In this document: piece by piece, positions 1,796-7,655 of the stretch
Layout: every line of letters begins with the position of its first letter
Numbering within the stretch: position 1 is the stretch's first letter
Source: a virus
Strand: one strand, 5' to 3'
Length of the DNA stretch: 16,182 bases
Virus genome (UHGV): UHGV-0293321
Notes under the pieces: generated by a model
Seen by the model: the letters and a program-made list of their open reading frames with translations, nothing else
Told to the model about the DNA's origin: nothing
Databases searched by the model: none
Made by a program: the position numbers and the translations under genes

Positions 1796-2255
1796 TCAAC
1801 GTAAGGCGTTCCTCGATATGCTGGCGTGGTCAGAGGGAACTGATAACGGACGTCAGAAAACCAGAAATCATGGTTATGACGTCATTGTTGGCGGAGAGCT
1901 ATTCACTGATTACTCCGATCACCCTCGCAAACTTGTCACGCTAAACCCCAAACTCAAATCAACAGCCGCCGGACGCTACCAGCTTCTTTCCCGTTGGTGG
2001 GATGCCTATCGTAAGCAGCTTGGCCTGAAAGACTTCTCTCCGAAAAGCCAGGACGCTGTGGCACTGCAACAGATTAAAGAGCGTGGCGCTTTACCGATGA
2101 TTGATCGCGGTGATATCCGTCAGGCTATCGACCGTTGCAGCAATATCTGGGCTTCACTGCCGGGCGCTGGTTATGGTCAGTTCGAGCATAAGGCTGACAG
2201 CCTGATTGCAAAATTCAAAGAAGCTGGCGGAACAGTCAGAGAGATTGAGGTATGA
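1779..2255 (+). CDS. R: Endolysin R, lambda-type lytic transglycosylase (158 aa)
   Basis: Translation [51 protein letters not shown]... is near-identical to lambda R as recalled. Start overlaps the end of S. Confidence 0.95.
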
Positions 2256-2719
2256 GCAGAGTAACCGCGATTATCTCCGCTCTGGTTATCTGCATCATCG
2301 TCTGCCTGTCATGGGCTGTTAATCATTACCGTGATAATGCCATTACCTACAAAGCCCAGCGCGACAAAAACACCAGAGAACTGAAGCTGGCGAACGCCAC
2401 CATTACTGACATGCAACAGCGCCAGCTTGATGCTGATGCACTCGATGCTAAATACACGAAGGAGTTAGCTGATGCGAAAGCTGAAAATGATGCTCTTCGG
2501 CGCAAGCTTGATAATGGTGGCCGGGTGCTCGTCAAAGGAAAATGCCCTGTGCCATCCTCAGCCGAAACCTCCAGCGCCTCCGGCATGGGCAATGATGCCA
2601 CCGTCGAACTCTCTCCAGTTGCTGGACGAAACGTTCTCGGTATCAGATCCGGAATCATCAGCGACCAAACATCACTGAGAGCGCTGCAGGAATACATCAA
2701 CACGCAGTGCCTGAAATGA
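2252..2719 (+). CDS. Rz: Spanin inner-membrane subunit Rz (i-spanin, 155 aa); N-terminal half lambda-like, C-terminal half divergent
   Basis: N-terminus [40 protein letters not shown]... matches lambda Rz as recalled, with an N-terminal transmembrane segment. ATG overlaps the R stop (ATGA). Contains the embedded +1 frame Rz1. Confidence 0.9.
2472..2678 (+). CDS. Rz1: Spanin outer-membrane lipoprotein Rz1 (o-spanin), fully embedded in Rz in the +1 frame
   Basis: Strong RBS AAGGAG at 2459-2464. Signal peptide [18 protein letters not shown] followed by Cys (lipobox VAGC), then a Pro-rich mature region ([11 protein letters not shown]). Same embedded architecture as lambda Rz/Rz1. Confidence 0.85.
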
Positions 2720-2727
2720 ACAATCAT

Positions 2728-2750
2728 AGCCTCGTAATAGCGAGGCTTTT
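2728..2750 (+). terminator. Weak hairpin after Rz (possible attenuating terminator)
   Basis: AGCCTCG (2728-2734) / CGAGGCT (2741-2747), 7 bp stem with a 6 nt loop, followed by TTT only. The T-tract is short, so efficiency is doubtful. Confidence 0.3.
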
Positions 2751-2768
2751 ACTACCCGAGGGTAAATA

Positions 2769-2957
2769 ATGTCATCTCCAATCATGAAGTATTTCGCTTA
2801 TCAACACCTCCCTGCGCATCTGCAGGAAGTAAGTAAGCCAATCGGTGACCTTGCGACACTGATGGATGAATCACTGCCGGACAGTGCTGAAAAGTCAGCA
2901 GGTCTCCGCAAGCTGCTCGAAGCTAAAGATGCGCTGGTGCGAGCAAAGCTGGGGTAA
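2769..2957 (+). CDS. Hypothetical small protein (62 aa), predicted helical, no family recognised
   Basis: ATG at 2769 with GAGGG about 8 nt upstream. Same strand as the operon, in the slot where lambda carries bor on the opposite strand. Stop TAA lies inside the first GTAAGT repeat motif. Confidence 0.5.
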   Translation: MSSPIMKYFAYQHLPAHLQEVSKPIGDLATLMDESLPDSAEKSAGLRKLLEAKDALVRAKLG

Positions 2958-2995
2958 GTCATTACAAAGCCTATCTACGGGTGGGCTTGATAATG
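2954..2995 (+). repeat. Copy A of an imperfect ~45 bp direct repeat (GTAAGT, short hairpin, TTGATAATG)
   Basis: GTAAGT at 2954-2959, AAGCC (2967-2971) / GGCTT (2984-2988) stem, then TTGATAATG ending at 2995. Aligns by eye with copy B at 3245-3295. Confidence 0.45.
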
Positions 2996-3180
2996 AAACC
3001 AGAATTTATTCTGGGAAACCAGTTACGGCAGTACAGCGAAACAACCCAAGCCAGTAAGTGGGGAAATAACACTGGCAGCCACTGAAAGATGAACCTCCAG
3101 CCTTATGGCAAAAAGATTCTTTGTGGTGGCGGACTGATGGAAAGACATCCTATTTCCAGCCAAACATTGAAGGAGTTGTT

Positions 3181-3252
3181 ATGTCAGCAGAAGGTTTCAA
3201 TAACCCATCAAAATTCCGGGATGAGTGGGATAGCAGCGTAAAGAGTAAGTGA
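3181..3252 (+). CDS. Candidate micro-ORF (23 aa, MSAEGFNNPSKFRDEWDSSVKSK) with consensus Shine-Dalgarno
   Basis: AAGGAG at 3170-3175, 5 nt spacer, ATG at 3181, TGA at 3250-3252. Lies between the two repeat copies. Too short to judge by composition. Confidence 0.2.
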   Translation: MSAEGFNNPSKFRDEWDSSVKSK

Positions 3253-3295
3253 TGCCATCACAAAAGCCATTCCCTACAGAGTGGCTTTGATAATG
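3245..3295 (+). repeat. Copy B of the imperfect direct repeat (GTAAGT, short hairpin, TTGATAATG)
   Basis: GTAAGT at 3245-3250, AAAGCC (3263-3268) / GGCTTT (3283-3288) stem, TTGATAATG ending at 3295. Confidence 0.45.
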
Positions 3296-3357
3296 GCTTA
3301 TACCCTACACGGGATAACTTAACTGATATCCCTTTTAACGGATAAACTGAGCCAACA

Positions 3358-3600
3358 ATGGCAGAGATTATTCCCATGACTGAAGAACAGAAATTCCAGT
3401 TAGAGATTTACAAACTGGTCATGAACCAGAACGCAGCCGCAGAAGAAGCATTTCAATTCATCGGCACTGACGAGTTGAAGCTTGAGCTATTCAAAATTCA
3501 CTTCCAGTCAGGCGGCGCTAATTCAGATATCACGACCCGCACAATCGAAGCGGTACGTAAATCGAAGGAAGCGTTAGACCTGTTTACTACCGGAGCATAA
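3358..3600 (+). CDS. Hypothetical small acidic protein (80 aa) immediately upstream of terS; same slot and length as P22 orf80
   Basis: ORF ends 2 nt before the terS start. Weak RBS; an alternative ATG at 3376. Homology to P22 orf80 is not verified, only position and length agree. Confidence 0.5.
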   Translation: MAEIIPMTEEQKFQLEIYKLVMNQNAAAEEAFQFIGTDELKLELFKIHFQSGGANSDITTRTIEAVRKSKEALDLFTTGA

Positions 3601-3602
3601 AC

Positions 3603-4043
3603 ATGGCGCGCCCAACAAAGTATCAAGAGGCGTACGCCGAACAGGCACGCAAACTGTGCTTGCTGGGCTACACCGATGCAGAGCTTGCTGATTTCTTCGA
3701 AGTCAGTGAGTCAACTATTAACAAGTGGAAGCTTGATTATCCTGAGTTTTCGGAGTCCATAAAAAAGGGTAAGGCCGTTGCTGATGCAGAAGTTAGTGAC
3801 CGTCTTTATCAACGCGCTATGGGCTTCGTGGCTCCAGACATCGATATTCGTGTTATTGAAAACAGAATTGTCGAAACTCCGCTTGAGAAGTATTACCCGC
3901 CTGATACAACCGCCGCCATCTTCTGGCTTAAGAACCGACAGAAGGATAAATGGCGCGACAAGGTTGATCACGAACTAACAGGCAAAGACGGCGGCGCAAT
4001 CCAGATTGAAACATCACCGATGAGTACTCTATTCGGAAAATGA
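3603..4043 (+). CDS. Terminase small subunit (146 aa), Sf6 gp1-like C-terminus with a different N-terminal DNA-binding domain
   Basis: C-terminal ...ELTGKDGGAIQIETSPMSTLFGK matches the Sf6 small terminase tail as recalled. N-terminal region looks like an HTH DNA-binding domain (ELADFFEVSESTINKW). GGAG RBS. Stop overlaps the terL start (ATGA). Confidence 0.8.
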   Translation: MARPTKYQEAYAEQARKLCLLGYTDAELADFFEVSESTINKWKLDYPEFSESIKKGKAVADAEVSDRLYQRAMGFVAPDIDIRVIENRIVETPLEKYYPPDTTAAIFWLKNRQKDKWRDKVDHELTGKDGGAIQIETSPMSTLFGK

Positions 4044-5455
4044 CCTCGATTAATCCTATCTTTGAACCGTTCATTGAGGCGCATCGCTACAAAGTCGCCA
4101 AAGGCGGTCGAGGTAGCGGTAAGTCATGGGCAATTGCGAGGCTGCTTGTTGAAGCGGCGCGCCGGCAGCCGGTGCGTATTCTCTGCGCTCGTGAACTGCA
4201 AAACAGTATCAGCGATTCGGTAATCCGTTTGCTTGAAGATACCATCGAGCGTGAAGGGTATTCGGCTGAGTTTGAAATTCAGCGTTCAATGATCCGTCAT
4301 CTCGGAACGAATGCTGAATTCATGTTCTACGGCATAAAAAACAACCCGACAAAAATTAAATCGCTCGAAGGTATTGATATCTGCTGGGTGGAGGAAGCGG
4401 AAGCGGTAACGAAGGAATCGTGGGATATTCTGATACCAACCATCCGTAAGCCGTTCTCTGAAATATGGGTAAGCTTCAACCCGAAAAACATCCTCGACGA
4501 TACCTATCAGCGATTCGTCGTAAACCCTCCTGATGATATTTGTCTGCTGACGGTGAACTACACCGACAACCCGCACTTTCCTGAAGTTCTCCGTCTGGAG
4601 ATGGAAGAGTGTAAACGCAGAAATCCGACACTGTATCGTCACATCTGGCTTGGTGAGCCAGTAAGCGCAAGTGATATGGCAATCATCAAACGTGAATGGC
4701 TTGAAGCCGCAACCGATGCGCACAAGAAACTCGGATGGAAAGCGAAAGGCGCTGTTGTCTCTGCGCATGACCCGTCAGATACAGGACCAGATGCTAAAGG
4801 TTATGCATCGCGTCACGGTTCGGTAGTTAAGCGCATTGCCGAAGGTCTGCTGATGGACATCAACGAGGGTGCTGACTGGGCTACTTCGCTGGCGATTGAA
4901 GACGGCGCTGACCACTACCTGTGGGATGGTGATGGTGTTGGTGCTGGGCTACGCAGACAGACAACGGAAGCGTTCTCCGGCAAGAAAATCACCGCCACGA
5001 TGTTCAAGGGCAGCGAATCGCCATTCGATGAAGATGCTCCGTATCAGGCCGGAGCATGGGCTGATGAAGTCGTACAGGGCGACAACGTTCGCACTATTGG
5101 CGATGTGTTCCGCAATAAGCGAGCGCAATTCTATTACGCGCTGGCTGACAGGCTGTATCTGACATATCGGGCGGTTGTCTACGGTGAGTATGCAGACCCC
5201 GACGACATGCTGAGTTTCGACAAAGAAGCGATAGGCGAGAAGATGCTGGAGAAGCTGTTTGCAGAACTGACGCAGATTCAGCGCAAATTCAATAACAACG
5301 GGAAGCTGGAGCTAATGACTAAGGTCGAAATGAAGCAGAAGCTCGGTATTCCATCTCCTAACCTGGCTGATGCGCTGATGATGTGTATGCATTGCCCGGA
5401 GTCGGCTGCGCAACCCGACTATTCCAGTTACTCAATTCCTTGTGGTGTAGGTTGA
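4040..5455 (+). CDS. Terminase large subunit (471 aa), headful-packaging type
   Basis: Walker A-like KGGRGSGKS near the N-terminus, with acidic nuclease-domain residues in the C-terminal half. Length and position match P22 gp2 / Sf6 gp2. Confidence 0.95.
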   Translation: MTSINPIFEPFIEAHRYKVAKGGRGSGKSWAIARLLVEAARRQPVRILCARELQNSISDSVIRLLEDTIEREGYSAEFEIQRSMIRHLGTNAEFMFYGIKNNPTKIKSLEGIDICWVEEAEAVTKESWDILIPTIRKPFSEIWVSFNPKNILDDTYQRFVVNPPDDICLLTVNYTDNPHFPEVLRLEMEECKRRNPTLYRHIWLGEPVSASDMAIIKREWLEAATDAHKKLGWKAKGAVVSAHDPSDTGPDAKGYASRHGSVVKRIAEGLLMDINEGADWATSLAIEDGADHYLWDGDGVGAGLRRQTTEAFSGKKITATMFKGSESPFDEDAPYQAGAWADEVVQGDNVRTIGDVFRNKRAQFYYALADRLYLTYRAVVYGEYADPDDMLSFDKEAIGEKMLEKLFAELTQIQRKFNNNGKLELMTKVEMKQKLGIPSPNLADALMMCMHCPESAAQPDYSSYSIPCGVG

Positions 5456-5456
5456 T

Positions 5457-7655
5457 ATGGCAGAAAAAAAGATGGCTGACTGGCATCGCAAGGTGCTGTG
5501 CAACTTTGATAATGCCTGGTCAGCAACGCAGGATATGCGTGAGCAGATTATTGAGGCTCAACGTTTCGTCAGGGTGTCCGGCGCACAGTGGGAAGGTAGC
5601 ACAAACGCTGGTTACTCGTTTGATGAGGGCAGGTTTGAGCATTACCCGCGTTTTGAACTGAATAAGATTGCCCGTGAATGTGATCGCATCATTGGCGAGT
5701 ATCGACAGAATCGCATCAGCGTTAAATTCAGGCCGAAGGATGACAAGGCATCGGAAGCGTTAGCCGAAAAGATGAACGGCAAATTCCGCGCTGACTATCA
5801 GGAAACATCCGGTGGTGAAGCGTGTGATAACGCATTTGATGATGCTGTAACGGGCGGATTCGGTTGTTTCCGCATGTGTGCCGATTACGAAGATGAAATG
5901 GATCCGAGTAACGAGCAGCGCCGCATCAGCCTTCTTCCTGTTTACGACCCAGCGACATGCGTCTTCTTCGATCAGGACAGCAAGCAATATGACCGCTCTG
6001 ATGCTATGTGGGCTATGGAAATGTTCTCCATGACGCCTAAAGCGTTCGAGGCTGAATACCCTGATTCCATCGCGGCAAGCCTTTCTCGTGATGACACTGG
6101 CACTCAATATGACTGGTCAACGCCTGATGCCATCTATGTTGGACGCTACTACGAAGTTCGCATAGAGAAGGTGAAGCTCACAGCATGGCGTAACCCTGTT
6201 AGCGGAGAAACGGCAATCTATGATGAAGAGCAAATCAAAGATATTGTTGACGAGCTAACCGATGGTGCATTCGAGCTGATCGGTGAGAGGACAGTGAAGA
6301 AACGCAGAGTTTATTGCGGTCTTCTGTCTGGCGCTGAATGGCTGGAAGAACCGAAGCGTATTCCGGGTGAACATATTCCTCTCATCCCGGTATATGGGCG
6401 TCGCTCATTTGTTGATAATCAGGAGCGAATCGAAGGCCACGCAGCAAAAGCGATGGATGCACAGCGTCTTGAGAACCTGATGGTTTCCATGATTGCAGAT
6501 AACGCTACTCAGGCTGGCGGTGATGGCATTCCTATCGTGGATGTTGATTTCATTCCCGGCCCATTAATGAATCACTGGGCAGAGAGGAATAAGAAAAGAC
6601 CTGCAGTTCTTCCCATGACCAGCAAGAAGGACAAAAACGGAACGGTCATTTCAGAGGCTCAGGTTGCTGGCTGGACACCTCCGACACAAATGCCTCCTGC
6701 TCTTGCCGGGCTATTGCAGTACACCGGAACGGCTATTCAGCAAATTACAGGTGCGTCGCAGCTTGAGAACATGCCGAGCAACGTCGCTACCGATACCGTT
6801 GATAGCATCTTTAACCGGATGGACACGCAGTCCTATATCTACATGGACAACATGGCTAAATCCATGCGCCGTGCTGGCGTCGTGTGGCTTTCTATGGCTC
6901 GTGAAGTCTATGGCAGTGATACGCCGATGCGTATCGTTAATGAGGACGGCAGCGATGACGTGGCGCTGATGACTGGTGAAGTGGTTGACCGTCAGACAGG
7001 GCAGGTTATCGCGCTTAATGACCTTTCGCAGGGTAACTATGAAGTGACTGTCGATGTTGGCCAGTCGTTCGCTACTCGCCGTGATGCAACGGTTAAGTCG
7101 TTACTTTCCATGCTGGCACTTATCCCACCAGGAACTCCGAAGCACGACCTTGTATCGTCGATGATTCTCGACAATATGGACGGCGAAGGGATGGACGACC
7201 TGAAAGAATACAACCGCAATCAGTTGCTTCTGTCTGGCGTTATCAAGCCGAGAACGCCTGAAGAGCAGCAGATGGTTGAACAGGCGAAACAACAACAGGC
7301 CAGTCAGCCAGATCCGGCTATGGTTGCAGCGCAAGGTCAGCTTCTTGCTGGTCAGGCTGAATTGCAGAAAGCGCAGAACGAACAGGCAGCCATTCAGGTT
7401 AAAGCATTCCAGGCACAGACTGATGCTCAGGTTGCAGCGGCAAATGTTGTGAAAATACTCGCATCTGCCGATAGCCAGCAGAAATCTGATATCCGCGAGG
7501 CTCTGAAACTGCTCGGACAGTTCCAGCAACAGCAAGGAGACAATGCCCGTGCTGATGCAGAGCTTGTCCTGAAAAGTCAGGCACAGGGCCATGCGCAGCG
7601 CATGGACATCAGCAGCATCCTGCAAAAATCAACCCGGCAACAACCACAGCAGTAA
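5457..7655 (+). CDS. Portal protein (732 aa), P22 gp1-like including the long C-terminal Q-rich barrel helix
   Basis: Blocks IPxVPVxG, RRVY and the C-terminal DPAMVxAQGxLLxGQAELxKAQN ... RMDIxxILQ match P22 portal as recalled. Confidence 0.95.
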   Translation: MAEKKMADWHRKVLCNFDNAWSATQDMREQIIEAQRFVRVSGAQWEGSTNAGYSFDEGRFEHYPRFELNKIARECDRIIGEYRQNRISVKFRPKDDKASEALAEKMNGKFRADYQETSGGEACDNAFDDAVTGGFGCFRMCADYEDEMDPSNEQRRISLLPVYDPATCVFFDQDSKQYDRSDAMWAMEMFSMTPKAFEAEYPDSIAASLSRDDTGTQYDWSTPDAIYVGRYYEVRIEKVKLTAWRNPVSGETAIYDEEQIKDIVDELTDGAFELIGERTVKKRRVYCGLLSGAEWLEEPKRIPGEHIPLIPVYGRRSFVDNQERIEGHAAKAMDAQRLENLMVSMIADNATQAGGDGIPIVDVDFIPGPLMNHWAERNKKRPAVLPMTSKKDKNGTVISEAQVAGWTPPTQMPPALAGLLQYTGTAIQQITGASQLENMPSNVATDTVDSIFNRMDTQSYIYMDNMAKSMRRAGVVWLSMAREVYGSDTPMRIVNEDGSDDVALMTGEVVDRQTGQVIALNDLSQGNYEVTVDVGQSFATRRDATVKSLLSMLALIPPGTPKHDLVSSMILDNMDGEGMDDLKEYNRNQLLLSGVIKPRTPEEQQMVEQAKQQQASQPDPAMVAAQGQLLAGQAELQKAQNEQAAIQVKAFQAQTDAQVAAANVVKILASADSQQKSDIREALKLLGQFQQQQGDNARADAELVLKSQAQGHAQRMDISSILQKSTRQQPQQ

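Follow-up and report, generated by a model that had tools for sequence, protein, structure and literature searches.

Conserved hairpin linkers and exchangeable small genes at the lysis-to-packaging junction of a P22/Sf6-like phage

Background

Classic morons are expressed from the prophage, each with a promoter and a terminator of its own. In the polycistronic mRNAs of phages, intergenic hairpins serve as RNase III or stabiliser sites, the R sites of T7 being an example. Clark and colleagues, working on HK620 in 2001, reportedly described boundary or linker sequences at the mosaic junctions of lambdoid phages; such sequences are short, conserved and located exactly where similarity starts or stops. 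The morons of Juhala and Hendrix (HK97/HK022; bor of lambda) are extra genes next to the lysis genes, with a patchy distribution among lambdoid genomes. In P22, the pid moron locus, located between orf25 and orf80, has been described in the same neighbourhood (Cenens et al. 2013, PMC3573128; Wolput et al. 2022, PMC8835761), at a site that in related phages is empty or filled by another insert (PMC3573128). The 86-aa pid gene lies on the opposite strand; promoter and terminator are its own, and it has a long 5' UTR. P22 deleted for orf25-orf80 is still viable, and the DUF2560 gene included in this deletion (orf80) is therefore dispensable in P22 (PMC11016777).

The DNA analysed here (the window) is a stretch of 16,182 nucleotides of the virus genome UHGV-0293321. 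It belongs to a P22/Sf6-like phage, and its positions 2720-3602, hereafter the islet, are the accessory junction that lambdoid phages have between the lysis genes and terS. Sf6 (genes 65-68) and HK620 (hkbM/hkbN) share its order, namely Rz, a first cargo slot, a hairpin (hairpin 1) within a conserved non-coding element (ncA), a second cargo slot, a second hairpin (hairpin 2), the DUF2560 gene and terS. Where the window has an ORF of 62 codons (ORF62) Sf6 carries gene 65, where the window has a cassette with a micro-ORF it carries gene 66 (Pfam Phage_gp49_66), and it has the additional gene 68 between DUF2560 and terS. The same junction is occupied in P22, whose 3' part of ncA, hairpin 2 and Orf80 are 95-96% identical to the window at the DNA level; pid is absent from the window, and whereas pid, with a promoter to itself, is inserted just past hairpin 2 and runs on the opposite strand, the cargo of the window precedes hairpin 2 on the late strand and has no detected promoter.

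The patchy, lysis-adjacent cargo of the islet resembles the morons of Juhala and Hendrix, but it differs from classic morons in that no promoter was found, its GC content is not distinctive and expression would be expected late in lytic growth. The hairpins resemble boundary sequences in their conservation and in their position at the edges of similarity; unlike these, they share a secondary structure of RNA type that is conserved and shows compensatory changes, and they are not among the features labelled 'bsq', which the Sf6 record annotates elsewhere. Long, imperfect, interrupted by an internal loop, intergenic in a long transcript and without a U-tract, they also recall the T7 R sites; no sequence similarity connects the two, and the likeness is one of a possible way of working, not of membership.

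Results

Layout and coding content of the islet

The islet, with 883 bp, is the longest gap in the window between plus-strand ORFs of at least 100 aa, followed by one of 526 bp at 946-1471, in agreement with the low coding density for which the initial annotation had singled it out. The two ORFs of 62 and 80 aa which that annotation placed about 400 bp apart were confirmed in position and strand, with 400 bp between them (Table 1). It had called their products small, acidic and without a recognisable family; acidity holds for ORF80 (pI 4.7) and not for ORF62, which is near neutral (pI 6.7, with 8 acidic and 8 basic residues), and the lack of a recognisable family holds for ORF62, which falls in an unnamed family outside Pfam, and not for ORF80, a DUF2560 protein and the very gene (orf80) that the annotation had listed as P22 cargo. 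The repeats noticed in the 400-bp spacer are real, but the spacer is not loose sequence: it is a conserved and structured non-coding module with a micro-gene. Among the proposed micro-ORFs, only that at 3181-3252 (23 aa) is kept in frame. The 50-aa ORF at 3089-3241 was discarded as a gene, relatives breaking the frame through an A-run of 5, 6 or 7 bases, as was the 34-aa ORF at 2981-3085, which lies inside the non-coding ncA with 1-nt indels between relatives. Relatives keep the frames of ORF62 and ORF80 open, and neither product is a structural protein; neither of the two findings that the initial annotation had named as refuting its view was thus obtained. Scans of the window for tRNAs and Rfam families gave no match.

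At its 3' end the islet closes with the DUF2560 gene, which abuts terS. A repeat search found that the 19 nt directly preceding the terS ATG have a near-copy, identical at 16 of 19 positions, directly before the ATG of ORF62; in relatives, the same 19-nt junction as that of the terS ATG here precedes a micro-ORF designated type A. The repeat may be a scar of recombination, though it is short enough to have arisen by chance.

Table 1. Features of the islet (positions in the window)
Feature	Position	Strand	Description
Post-Rz hairpin	2728..2747	+	Directly 3' of the Rz stop; AGCCTCG-TAATAG-CGAGGCT, then TTTT; start of slot 1
19-nt repeat, upstream copy	2748-2766		TTTACTACCCGAGGGTAAA
ORF62	2769..2957	+	62 aa, predicted helical hairpin; RBS GAGGG at 2758-2762
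Hairpin 1	2959..2996	+	3' boundary of slot 1; 3' arm ends GATAATG
ncA	2959..3152	+	Conserved non-coding element, ~195 nt, hairpin 1 included
Cassette	3153..3256	+	104 bp, slot-2 cargo; in alignments, relatives are empty or have Sf6 gene 66
Micro-ORF	3181..3252	+	23 codons, MSAEGFNNPSKFRDEWDSSVKSK; RBS AAGGAG at 3170-3175
Hairpin 2	3254..3297	+	3' boundary of slot 2; paralogue of hairpin 1, ends GATAATG
Leader	3298..3357	+	Conserved, untranslated; precedes whichever gene is next
ORF80	3358..3600	+	DUF2560 family, acidic, four predicted helices
19-nt repeat, downstream copy	3583..3601		TTTACTACCGGAGCATAAA; 3' end of ORF80, directly 5' of the terS ATG

Two cargo slots between conserved linkers

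Comparison with related phages shows two cargo slots delimited by conserved non-coding linkers, into which phages have recombined differing small accessory genes. The linkers are the terminator-like hairpin after Rz, the two paralogous hairpins ending in GATAATG, the 195-nt ncA element and the 60-nt leader, and the cargo of the window phage consists of ORF62 in slot 1 and the 104-bp cassette with its 23-codon micro-ORF in slot 2. At least six gene sets occupy slot 1 in 97 related viral contigs (gp65-like, Rha, KilA-N, HK97 p61-like, a 166-aa gene and ORF62); ORF62 is found in three of these contigs and other genes in the remaining 94. Slot 2 is also variable, holding Sf6 gene 66, the micro-ORF cassette, P22 pid or nothing, the last in loci L009-L015 and in about 42 of 94 contigs. 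The view of the islet as an accessory region with variable cargo was thus borne out, the contents of the slots differing across Sf6/P22-like genomes (gene 65/66, pid, cassette or empty).

The breakpoints of similarity coincide with the hairpins. Similarity to Sf6, Huey, 611R6 and phiKp30 begins about 2-8 nt past the ORF62 stop, at hairpin 1, ends at 3152 and returns at 3257, at hairpin 2, and the linkers (ncA, both hairpins and the leader) are 88-99% identical across siphoviruses and podoviruses with unrelated flanks. As in morons, ORF62 and the cassette are inserted between genes that are adjacent in relatives. No sigma-70-like promoter was found for either on the plus strand between 2000 and 4500 in a consensus scan, by which weak promoters may be missed, and the stable hairpins that follow both cargo genes, in the place of a moron's own terminator, have no U-tract.

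Structure and conservation of the linkers

The post-Rz hairpin looks like a weak intrinsic terminator; a terminator scan lists its stem, although scored on the minus strand, the plus-strand T-run being of 4 T only, and the equivalent hairpins of phages Emek and HK544 are annotated as rho-independent terminators. Hairpins 1 and 2 are not canonical intrinsic terminators, as their stems run into GAUAAUG and UUUU is found only at the post-Rz hairpin. Their 3' arms contain the repeats GTGGGCTTGATAATG (2981-2995) and GTGGCTTTGATAATG (3281-3295). Hairpin 1 folds into a 6-bp outer stem, a 2x2 internal loop and a 9-bp inner stem closed by a UACG tetraloop, and every variant of the 5' arm of its inner stem retains pairing through changes from U.G to C-G. 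In hairpin 2 the outer stem has 7 bp and the inner one 10 bp, again with a 2x2 internal loop between them; across its 23 distinct variants 95.4% of cells pair, compared to 29-54% with slid partners, and four pairs are changed on both sides, in addition to several U.G pairs which would be mismatches on the other strand, this covariation stemming mainly from two sequence lineages with few independent events. On the evidence of the alignments, the hairpins are not a product of chance, because they are conserved in more than 190 phage records and hairpin 2 shows compensatory changes. There are chimeras of hairpins 1 and 2 and copies of hairpin 1 joined straight to the leader, and in Stx phages hairpin 1 is also found alone, 3' of other cargo.

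The ncA element is 88-99% identical in 193 phage records, including HK97, HK022, HK620, Sf6 and ST64T, while P22 carries just its 3' 125 nt. A coding role is excluded by the 1-nt indels between relatives. Its fold favours the plus strand (z of -3.7 against -1.4 on the minus strand; consensus fold of -45.3 against -32.7 kcal/mol), and no covariation was seen beyond hairpin 1, so that its conservation could reflect recent shared ancestry instead of function. Neither ncA nor the hairpins matched an Rfam family at the gathering thresholds, the best hits below them being mir-458 (22.2 bits, cut-off 59) and Proteo-phage-1 (16.8 bits, cut-off 42). The possibility that ncA is the promoter and 5' UTR of pid was dismissed, as pid lies on the opposite strand and downstream of hairpin 2. 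The leader stays the same from prophage to prophage, although the gene behind it may be DUF2560, an HNH gene or a Terminase_2-type terS.

ORF62, the cargo of slot 1

ORF62 falls in PHROG 1761/5120, which bears no function label, and has no match in Pfam, NCBIfam or defence databases. Its family is very large, with 4,169 clusters at 50% identity, 2,201 clusters at 90% identity and relatives in 321 phage records. Proteins of Vibrio, Acinetobacter, Erwinia and Mycobacterium phages share 67-81% identity with it at unrelated genome positions, and the copies of coliphages and mycobacteriophages are about 70% identical to each other. An identical protein begins 50 nt past Rz in all eight of the prophage loci shown, with at least four terminase types. 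The domain occurs alone, in tandem duplication, or fused to other small phage domains without assigned function (RyR, WDGH, crAss001_48 and an XRE-type HTH), and the Cys of the AKDCFVRA motif, otherwise common, has been lost in the enterobacterial clade.

Structure prediction, proposed with the initial annotation, was carried out with AlphaFold2 and returned a helical hairpin for ORF62 (pLDDT 97) and four helices for ORF80 (pLDDT 84). The ORF62 model yielded no Foldseek match at E <= 0.001 (best E 1.9), a sequence search of the PDB with ORF62 and ORF80 gave nothing useful, and the best PDB hit of the family profile, the phage P1 tail protein Gp22 (E 0.074), was judged noise. The sole PADLOC match was the HTH portion of one fusion protein. 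Homology to Sf6 gp68 was considered and rejected, since the two sequences have no visible similarity. A literature search for the LRKLLEAKD motif, the PHROG numbers 1761/5120 and the WDGH domain found nothing.

The micro-ORF cassette of slot 2

Phages HK544 and Emek have the same 104-bp cassette, as do 129 of 5,426 complete E. coli genomes; nearly all of the records listed leave it without annotation. Its micro-ORF has an RBS 5 nt upstream of the start in the window, and the homologues, of 23-30 aa with the core G[FS][DN]NP[STV][KQ]FR[DE]E[WL]D, occupy four late-operon positions in phages and prophages of E. coli, Salmonella, Enterobacter, Atlantibacter, Cronobacter and Proteus. Between DUF2560 and terS, at least 69 viral contigs have the type-A micro-ORF, set off from the DUF2560 stop and the terS ATG by spacers of constant length (2 nt and 7 nt) and followed by at least two terS types; homologues follow Rz in Proteus phages and lie between antiterminator and lysis genes in Cronobacter phage ES2, and the copy in the window is not adjacent to terS. 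All 21 DNA alleles recovered in the widest scan span 23-30 codons. The pN/pS ratio is 0.10-0.56 with synonymous sites near saturation, values to be read with the bias of peptide-based homologue searches towards low pN/pS. Frame, length, RBS and pN/pS all agree, and together they indicate a translated gene at 3181-3252.

A collection of about 15 billion proteins contains none of the 23-aa forms, and the micro-proteins constitute a conserved, essentially unannotated family. Membership in Pfam DUF2740 was rejected (13 bits against a cut-off of 27). The micro-ORF was also considered as the cut-off 5' end of a 95-aa gene that follows DUF2560 in locus L009, but that protein is unrelated, and the sequences matching the micro-ORF in this comparison are themselves complete ORFs of 23 codons.

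ORF80, a DUF2560 protein

ORF80 matches Pfam PF10834 with 147.7 bits (cut-off 25, E 1e-43), its residues 5-76 covering positions 1-72 of the 72-position profile. Judging from a DNA identity of 95.6% to the P22 stretch containing Orf80, from notes in the Sf6 and Emek records and from its position directly upstream of the packaging genes, it is the orthologue of P22 Orf80, Sf6 gp67 and HK620 HkbM. The family is small, with only 93 clusters, all from Enterobacterales where named; the ORF80 model has no fold match in the PDB, and a literature search returned only passing mentions of DUF2560 in two papers. DUF2560 is already catalogued and is not new.

Discussion

We consider it likely that the islet is a junction for cargo exchange, set where the lysis cassette meets the packaging genes in a lambdoid late operon of the Sf6/P22 type. 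Since all its parts share the strand of the late operon and the promoter scan was negative, they would most likely be transcribed during late lytic growth, by antiterminated transcripts that start at the late promoter and read through. The hairpins would fold in the sense RNA, and their most likely contribution, which is a guess, would be to RNase processing or to the stability of the late mRNA. At the DNA level, the conserved hairpin sequences could double as homology for the recombination that swaps cargo.

That the spacer consists instead of functionless, decaying remains of deleted genes, with small ORFs arising by accident, is highly improbable. Low coding density, the empty slot 2 of many relatives and the clearly spurious ORFs would fit such decay, which is contradicted by linkers that stay 88-99% identical between unrelated flanks, by the compensatory changes of hairpin 2 and by a micro-ORF whose start, stop and peptide core are kept across genera while synonymous sites approach saturation. 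Very little more probability attaches to ncA being the gene of a trans-acting small RNA. The element is strongly conserved, has no coding capacity and folds in a strand-specific manner, but it lacks a promoter, a U-tract terminator and an Rfam family, and its covariation is limited to hairpin 1; moreover, among the prophage ncRNAs of BTP1, a phage with only the 3' part of ncA, STnc6000 to STnc6040 (coordinates retrieved; nine ncRNAs reported) include none in the matching region. We also regard as doubtful the idea, suggested by a position directly upstream of terS and by apparent translational coupling, that DUF2560 and the micro-protein assist DNA packaging as accessory factors or tune the translation of terS. 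In the window, 2 nt separate the DUF2560 stop from the terS ATG, the type-A micro-ORF keeps its fixed spacers between the two genes, and HNH packaging cofactors hold the same position in HK97-like phages; against this, the P22 deletion mutant is viable, many relatives miss DUF2560, the micro-ORF or both, and the micro-ORF is placed elsewhere in Proteus phages, in ES2 and in the window itself.

As regards function within the cargo-exchange junction, ORF62 most likely binds a broadly conserved cellular component or small molecule rather than serving virion assembly, because its conservation across phyla is so strong. A more specific reading, which the initial annotation had raised and which we put forward tentatively, would make an anti-defence or host-takeover effector of ORF62 and perhaps of the micro-protein. 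Such an effector might be a sponge for, or an inhibitor of, a conserved immune signal or host factor, and its late expression would protect the progeny or the next infection. Genes that are small, mobile and moron-like and that lie where two modules meet would suit this role, as would a domain that stands alone, is duplicated or is joined to other small phage domains, that changes its genome position in unrelated phages and whose extreme conservation suggests a universal target. Counter-defence genes are usually early, however, and a late-operon position is unusual for them; the enterobacterial clade has lost the AKDCFVRA Cys; and the families to which the initial annotation had pointed offered no help, as ORF62 resembled no known anti-defence, anti-CRISPR, Ocr/ArdA-like, nucleotide-sponge or defence-associated member in sequence or fold in the searches described above. 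With similar reserve, ORF62 might be the enterobacterial member of a pan-phage helical-hairpin domain of about 60 residues, spread from phages of Proteobacteria to those of Actinobacteria (about 4,200 clusters at 50% identity), that neutralises an immune signal or a host factor of universal conservation; a second late-operon effector, wholly unannotated, would be the GFDNPSKFRDEWD peptide of 23 residues.

The junction itself is ordinary, and its value lies in ORF62, the micro-protein gene and the paired hairpins. The GATAATG hairpins provide a sequence-level handle on cargo exchange and possibly on the processing of late mRNA, and the micro-protein gene escapes standard annotation though it is conserved across genera and often located directly 5' of terS. 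ORF62, whose similarity between coliphages and mycobacteriophages points to a very conserved target, is with its 62 aa an easily tested entry into one of the larger phage families without Pfam model or structure. If ORF62 and the GFDNPSKFRDEWD peptide are both effectors, the junction would be a reservoir of new small phage effectors.

Organisation of the junction between Rz and terS

The window comprises the late region of a lambdoid phage of the Sf6/HK620/CUS-3 type (Lederbergvirus); its longest interval free of + strand ORFs of 100 aa or more is the 883 bp between Rz and terS. The two ORFs which the initial annotation had placed here, of 62 aa (ORF62) and 80 aa (ORF80), are both present and 400 bp apart, and AlphaFold2 models of both are helical. 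Their description as a small acidic pair fits ORF80 (pI 4.7) but not ORF62 (pI 6.7; acidic and basic residues are balanced at 8 each). Ahead of the holin gene, a further 526 bp (946-1471) form the second longest gap between large ORFs and presumably represent the late promoter and its leader. In BTP1, where Rz starts at 387735, the ncRNA STnc6010 lies immediately 5' of the lysis genes.

Features of the late region around the accessory junction
Feature	Coordinates	Description
Holin	1472-1795	lambda-type
Endolysin	1779-2255	
Rz	2252-2719	with embedded Rz1
Accessory junction	2720-3602	
ORF62	2769-2957	+ strand, 62 aa
ncA	2959-3152	first conserved block; 88-99% identity in 193 phage records
Hairpin 1	2959-2996	start of ncA; 6 + 9 bp, UACG loop
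Micro-ORF cassette	3153-3256	104 bp; slot 2 of the window
Micro-ORF	3181-3252	+ strand
Hairpin 2	3254-3297	start of second conserved block; 7 + 10 bp
Leader		60 nt, directly 3' of hairpin 2
ORF80	3358-3600	+ strand, 80 aa
terS	3603-4043	
terL	4040-5455	
Portal	5457-7655	P22-type

Conserved hairpins and non-coding DNA

What had been regarded as a repeat-containing spacer is an ordered and conserved module composed of the non-coding element ncA, two hairpins, a leader and the micro-ORF cassette. Alignments with Sf6, Huey, 611R6 and phiKp30 start some 2-8 nt past the ORF62 stop (at 2959 for Sf6), break off at 3152 and pick up again at 3257. Among the carriers of ncA are siphoviruses (HK97, HK022) as well as podoviruses (Sf6, HK620, ST64T); P22 retains only its 3' 125 nt, behind rha, ES18 just the 5' 114 nt, and Stx phages no more than the first 38 nt. 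Copies differ by single-nucleotide indels, among them an A-run of 5, 6 or 7 bases, and the element is therefore non-coding; the same indels rule out a 50-aa ORF at 3089-3241 as a gene. Neither covariation outside hairpin 1 nor an Rfam match was found for ncA, and of the BTP1 prophage ncRNAs whose coordinates were retrieved from the transcriptome tables, part of the nine reported, none maps to the equivalent region. In 29 of 96 distinct ncA copies (~30%), a 58-nt insertion at 3008/3009 (for example 4241-4298 of locus L009) replaces the small hairpin CCAGAATTTATTCTGG (2999-3014) and brings its own, ACAGATTTAACTAAATCTGT. The leader stands before the gene for DUF2560 (Pfam PF10834), an HNH gene or a terS gene, depending on the prophage.

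The repeats reported earlier are genuine: GTGGGCTTGATAATG (2981-2995) and GTGGCTTTGATAATG (3281-3295) each form the 3' arm of a hairpin, and the two hairpins are related. Across 23 distinct variants of hairpin 2, pairing is maintained in 95.4% of cells; sliding the 3' partners lowers this to 29-54%. Four pairs are altered on both sides (A-U to G-C), one is found as G-C, G.U and A-U, and several positions are U.G. In hairpin 1, where the 3' arm of the variants was fixed by the search pattern, the 5' arm of the inner stem keeps its pairing in every variant through U.G to C-G changes. As U.G pairs become C/A mismatches on the opposite strand, and the consensus fold is stronger on the + strand (-45.3 kcal/mol) than on the other (-32.7), sequence comparison argues that the hairpins are structures of the sense RNA. 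No U-tract follows either of them, so they are not canonical terminators. Hairpin 1/hairpin 2 chimeras occur and some hairpin 1 copies are joined straight to the leader, indicating recombination between the paralogous hairpins, which is a simple route to the deletion or exchange of cargo.

Variable cargo in two slots

The proposal of an accessory islet with variable cargo was borne out by IMG/VR contigs fetched with the hairpin-1 arm, which show alternative contents in both slots. Slot 1, from Rz to hairpin 1, holds a gp65-like, Rha, KilA-N, HK97 p61-like or 166-aa gene, or ORF62, the last in only 3 of 97 contigs. Slot 2, from ncA to hairpin 2, is empty in about 42 of 94; 19 have Sf6 gene 66 (Pfam Phage_gp49_66) there, and nine the micro-ORF cassette. 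In P22, the moron pid is inserted just after hairpin 2, on the opposite strand; Cenens et al. described its place as a genuine moron site, with relatives lacking the insert or carrying another (PMC3573128).

In Huey (PQ850609.1), both the Sf6 gene 66 homologue (1729-2109) and the 166-aa slot-1 gene (994-1494) are named 'anti-CRISPR protein', labels for which no support was seen; the PHROG matched by Sf6 gene 66 has no assigned function. In 611R6 (ON470589.1, 2414-2854) and two further phage records (H5, H6), the orthologue of the window terS is named 'HNH homing endonuclease', probably a mis-annotation; the window gene belongs to PHROG 309, terminase small subunit.

ORF80 and ORF62

The initial annotation recognised no family for either protein, which stands for ORF62 as regards Pfam and NCBIfam, neither of which has a model for it, but not for ORF80, which matches DUF2560 from end to end (E 1e-43). 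The orf80 of P22, cited in that annotation as the content of this site in P22, is in fact the same gene: the DNA is 95.6% identical to the P22 stretch that contains it, and Sf6 gp67 and HK620 HkbM are orthologues too. The family comprises 93 clusters at 90% identity, with every named member from Enterobacterales. The ORF80 model consists of four helices (pLDDT 84), for which Foldseek returned no fold match in the PDB.

ORF62 is the most interesting of the proteins encoded here. It matches PHROGs 1761 and 5120, both without assigned function, and its relatives form 2,201 clusters at 90% identity; an exhaustive HMMER scan of clusters at 50% identity yields 4,169. Homologues were found by tblastn in 321 phage records, including Vibrio phages (identity up to 81%), Brevibacterium, Gordonia and Mycobacterium phages (67-70%), Acinetobacter phages (T4-like 133 and ZZ1 among them), Erwinia jumbo phages, N4-like roseophages and Myxococcus Mx4; no P22-like phage of E. 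coli or Salmonella appears among the matches listed or the ten commonest host genera. In distant phages the genes occupy unrelated genome positions, often with non-coding DNA on either side. In enterobacterial prophages an identical protein begins 50 nt after the Rz stop in all 8 loci shown, which together represent at least four types of terminase. The consensus for the family reads ILKYFxYxHLPxHLQxVSKPIGDLAxxMDxxLPDxAEKSAGLRKLLEAKDCFVRAxL, with Ala-Leu in the enterobacterial clade where Cys-Phe is usual, and the model is a short helix against a helical hairpin (pLDDT 97). The domain also occurs in tandem pairs and in fusions (P0186, P0218, P0231, P0257, P0260, P0124, P0131) with RyR (PF02026), WDGH (PF25311), crAss001_48-like (PF21825) and XRE-type HTH domains; these partners are themselves phage domains still little understood. 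Conservation across such distant hosts argues for a very conserved partner of ORF62.

The 19 nt preceding the ORF62 start (2748-2766) share 16 positions with the equally long 3' end of the DUF2560 gene before terS (3583-3601), a resemblance which suggests that ORF62 was formerly located behind a DUF2560 gene and which may be a chance match.

A 23-codon micro-ORF

The slot-2 cassette is shared with HK544 and Emek, and of 5,426 complete E. coli genomes 129 contain it; nearly all records listed leave it unannotated. It contains an ORF of 23 codons, MSAEGFNNPSKFRDEWDSSVKSK, with AAGGAG five bases 5' of its ATG; both substitutions within it in Emek are synonymous. A paralogue with 60% identity, MATQGFDNPSKFRDEWDKQAEGK, likewise of exactly 23 codons, lies between the DUF2560 stop (2 nt) and the terS ATG (7 nt) in at least 69 viral contigs, and precedes at least two terS types. 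Homologues of 23-30 codons stand directly behind the Rz terminator in the Proteus phages Pm34 and Brookers, and Enterobacter and Atlantibacter genomes carry others. The core conserved across these sequences reads G[FS][DN]NP[STV][KQ]FR[DE]E[WL]D. Pairwise pN/pS is 0.10-0.56 at a pS of 0.4-1.0, values open to downward bias from the peptide-guided searches that supplied the homologues; the conservation of start, stop and length is free of this bias.

In Pm34 (KY420199.1, 1160-1306), the frame annotated as gp6 (48 aa) differs from that of the micro-ORF, MAAQGFDNPTQFREELDKSIPKE, and is probably wrong, as the conserved 23-codon ORF occupies the same place. In Cronobacter phage ES2 (JF314845.1, ~1185-1268), an unannotated 27-aa homologue, MKSCNATQGFDNPTKFREEWDRQTKEA, lies between the antitermination gene and the lysis gene block including the lysozyme; the mini-gene is thus also found at the other end of the lysis cassette.

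The 23-aa forms are absent from a collection of about 15 billion proteins, where a 29-aa form appears solely as 'uncharacterised protein'. The 90%-identity cluster of the latter (P0364) includes 'lysophospholipase/fibronectin type 3' proteins of 663-707 aa (JGI), probably because of an artefact of clustering or a short segment in common. The micro-protein has no PHROGs family, and its assignment to Pfam DUF2740 was rejected (13 bits, cut-off 27).

Proposed working and roles

The comparisons establish a mosaic architecture with alternative cargo, conserved sense-strand hairpins and conserved open frames. As every element is encoded on the late strand and a sigma-70-like consensus scan of the + strand at 2000-4500 detected no promoter, they are probably transcribed late through antiterminated read-through. 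The hairpins would probably serve in the processing or stabilisation of the late mRNA, and their DNA would also provide homology at which cargo can be exchanged.

ORF62, the micro-protein and DUF2560 would be dispensable accessory proteins. P22 remains viable after deletion of orf25-orf80 (PMC11016777), making the DUF2560 gene accessory under laboratory conditions. Coupling to terS suggests that DUF2560 and the micro-protein might have a packaging-related role, although this reading is weakened by the same deletion and by their patchy distribution and variable positions. ORF62 could possibly act in anti-defence, but the analysis yielded nothing positive in its favour.

The junction is real and accessory, of a kind already known from the P22 pid/moron site and from the region of genes 65-68 in Sf6. 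The ORF62 family and the micro-protein of 23 residues are the leads to pursue.
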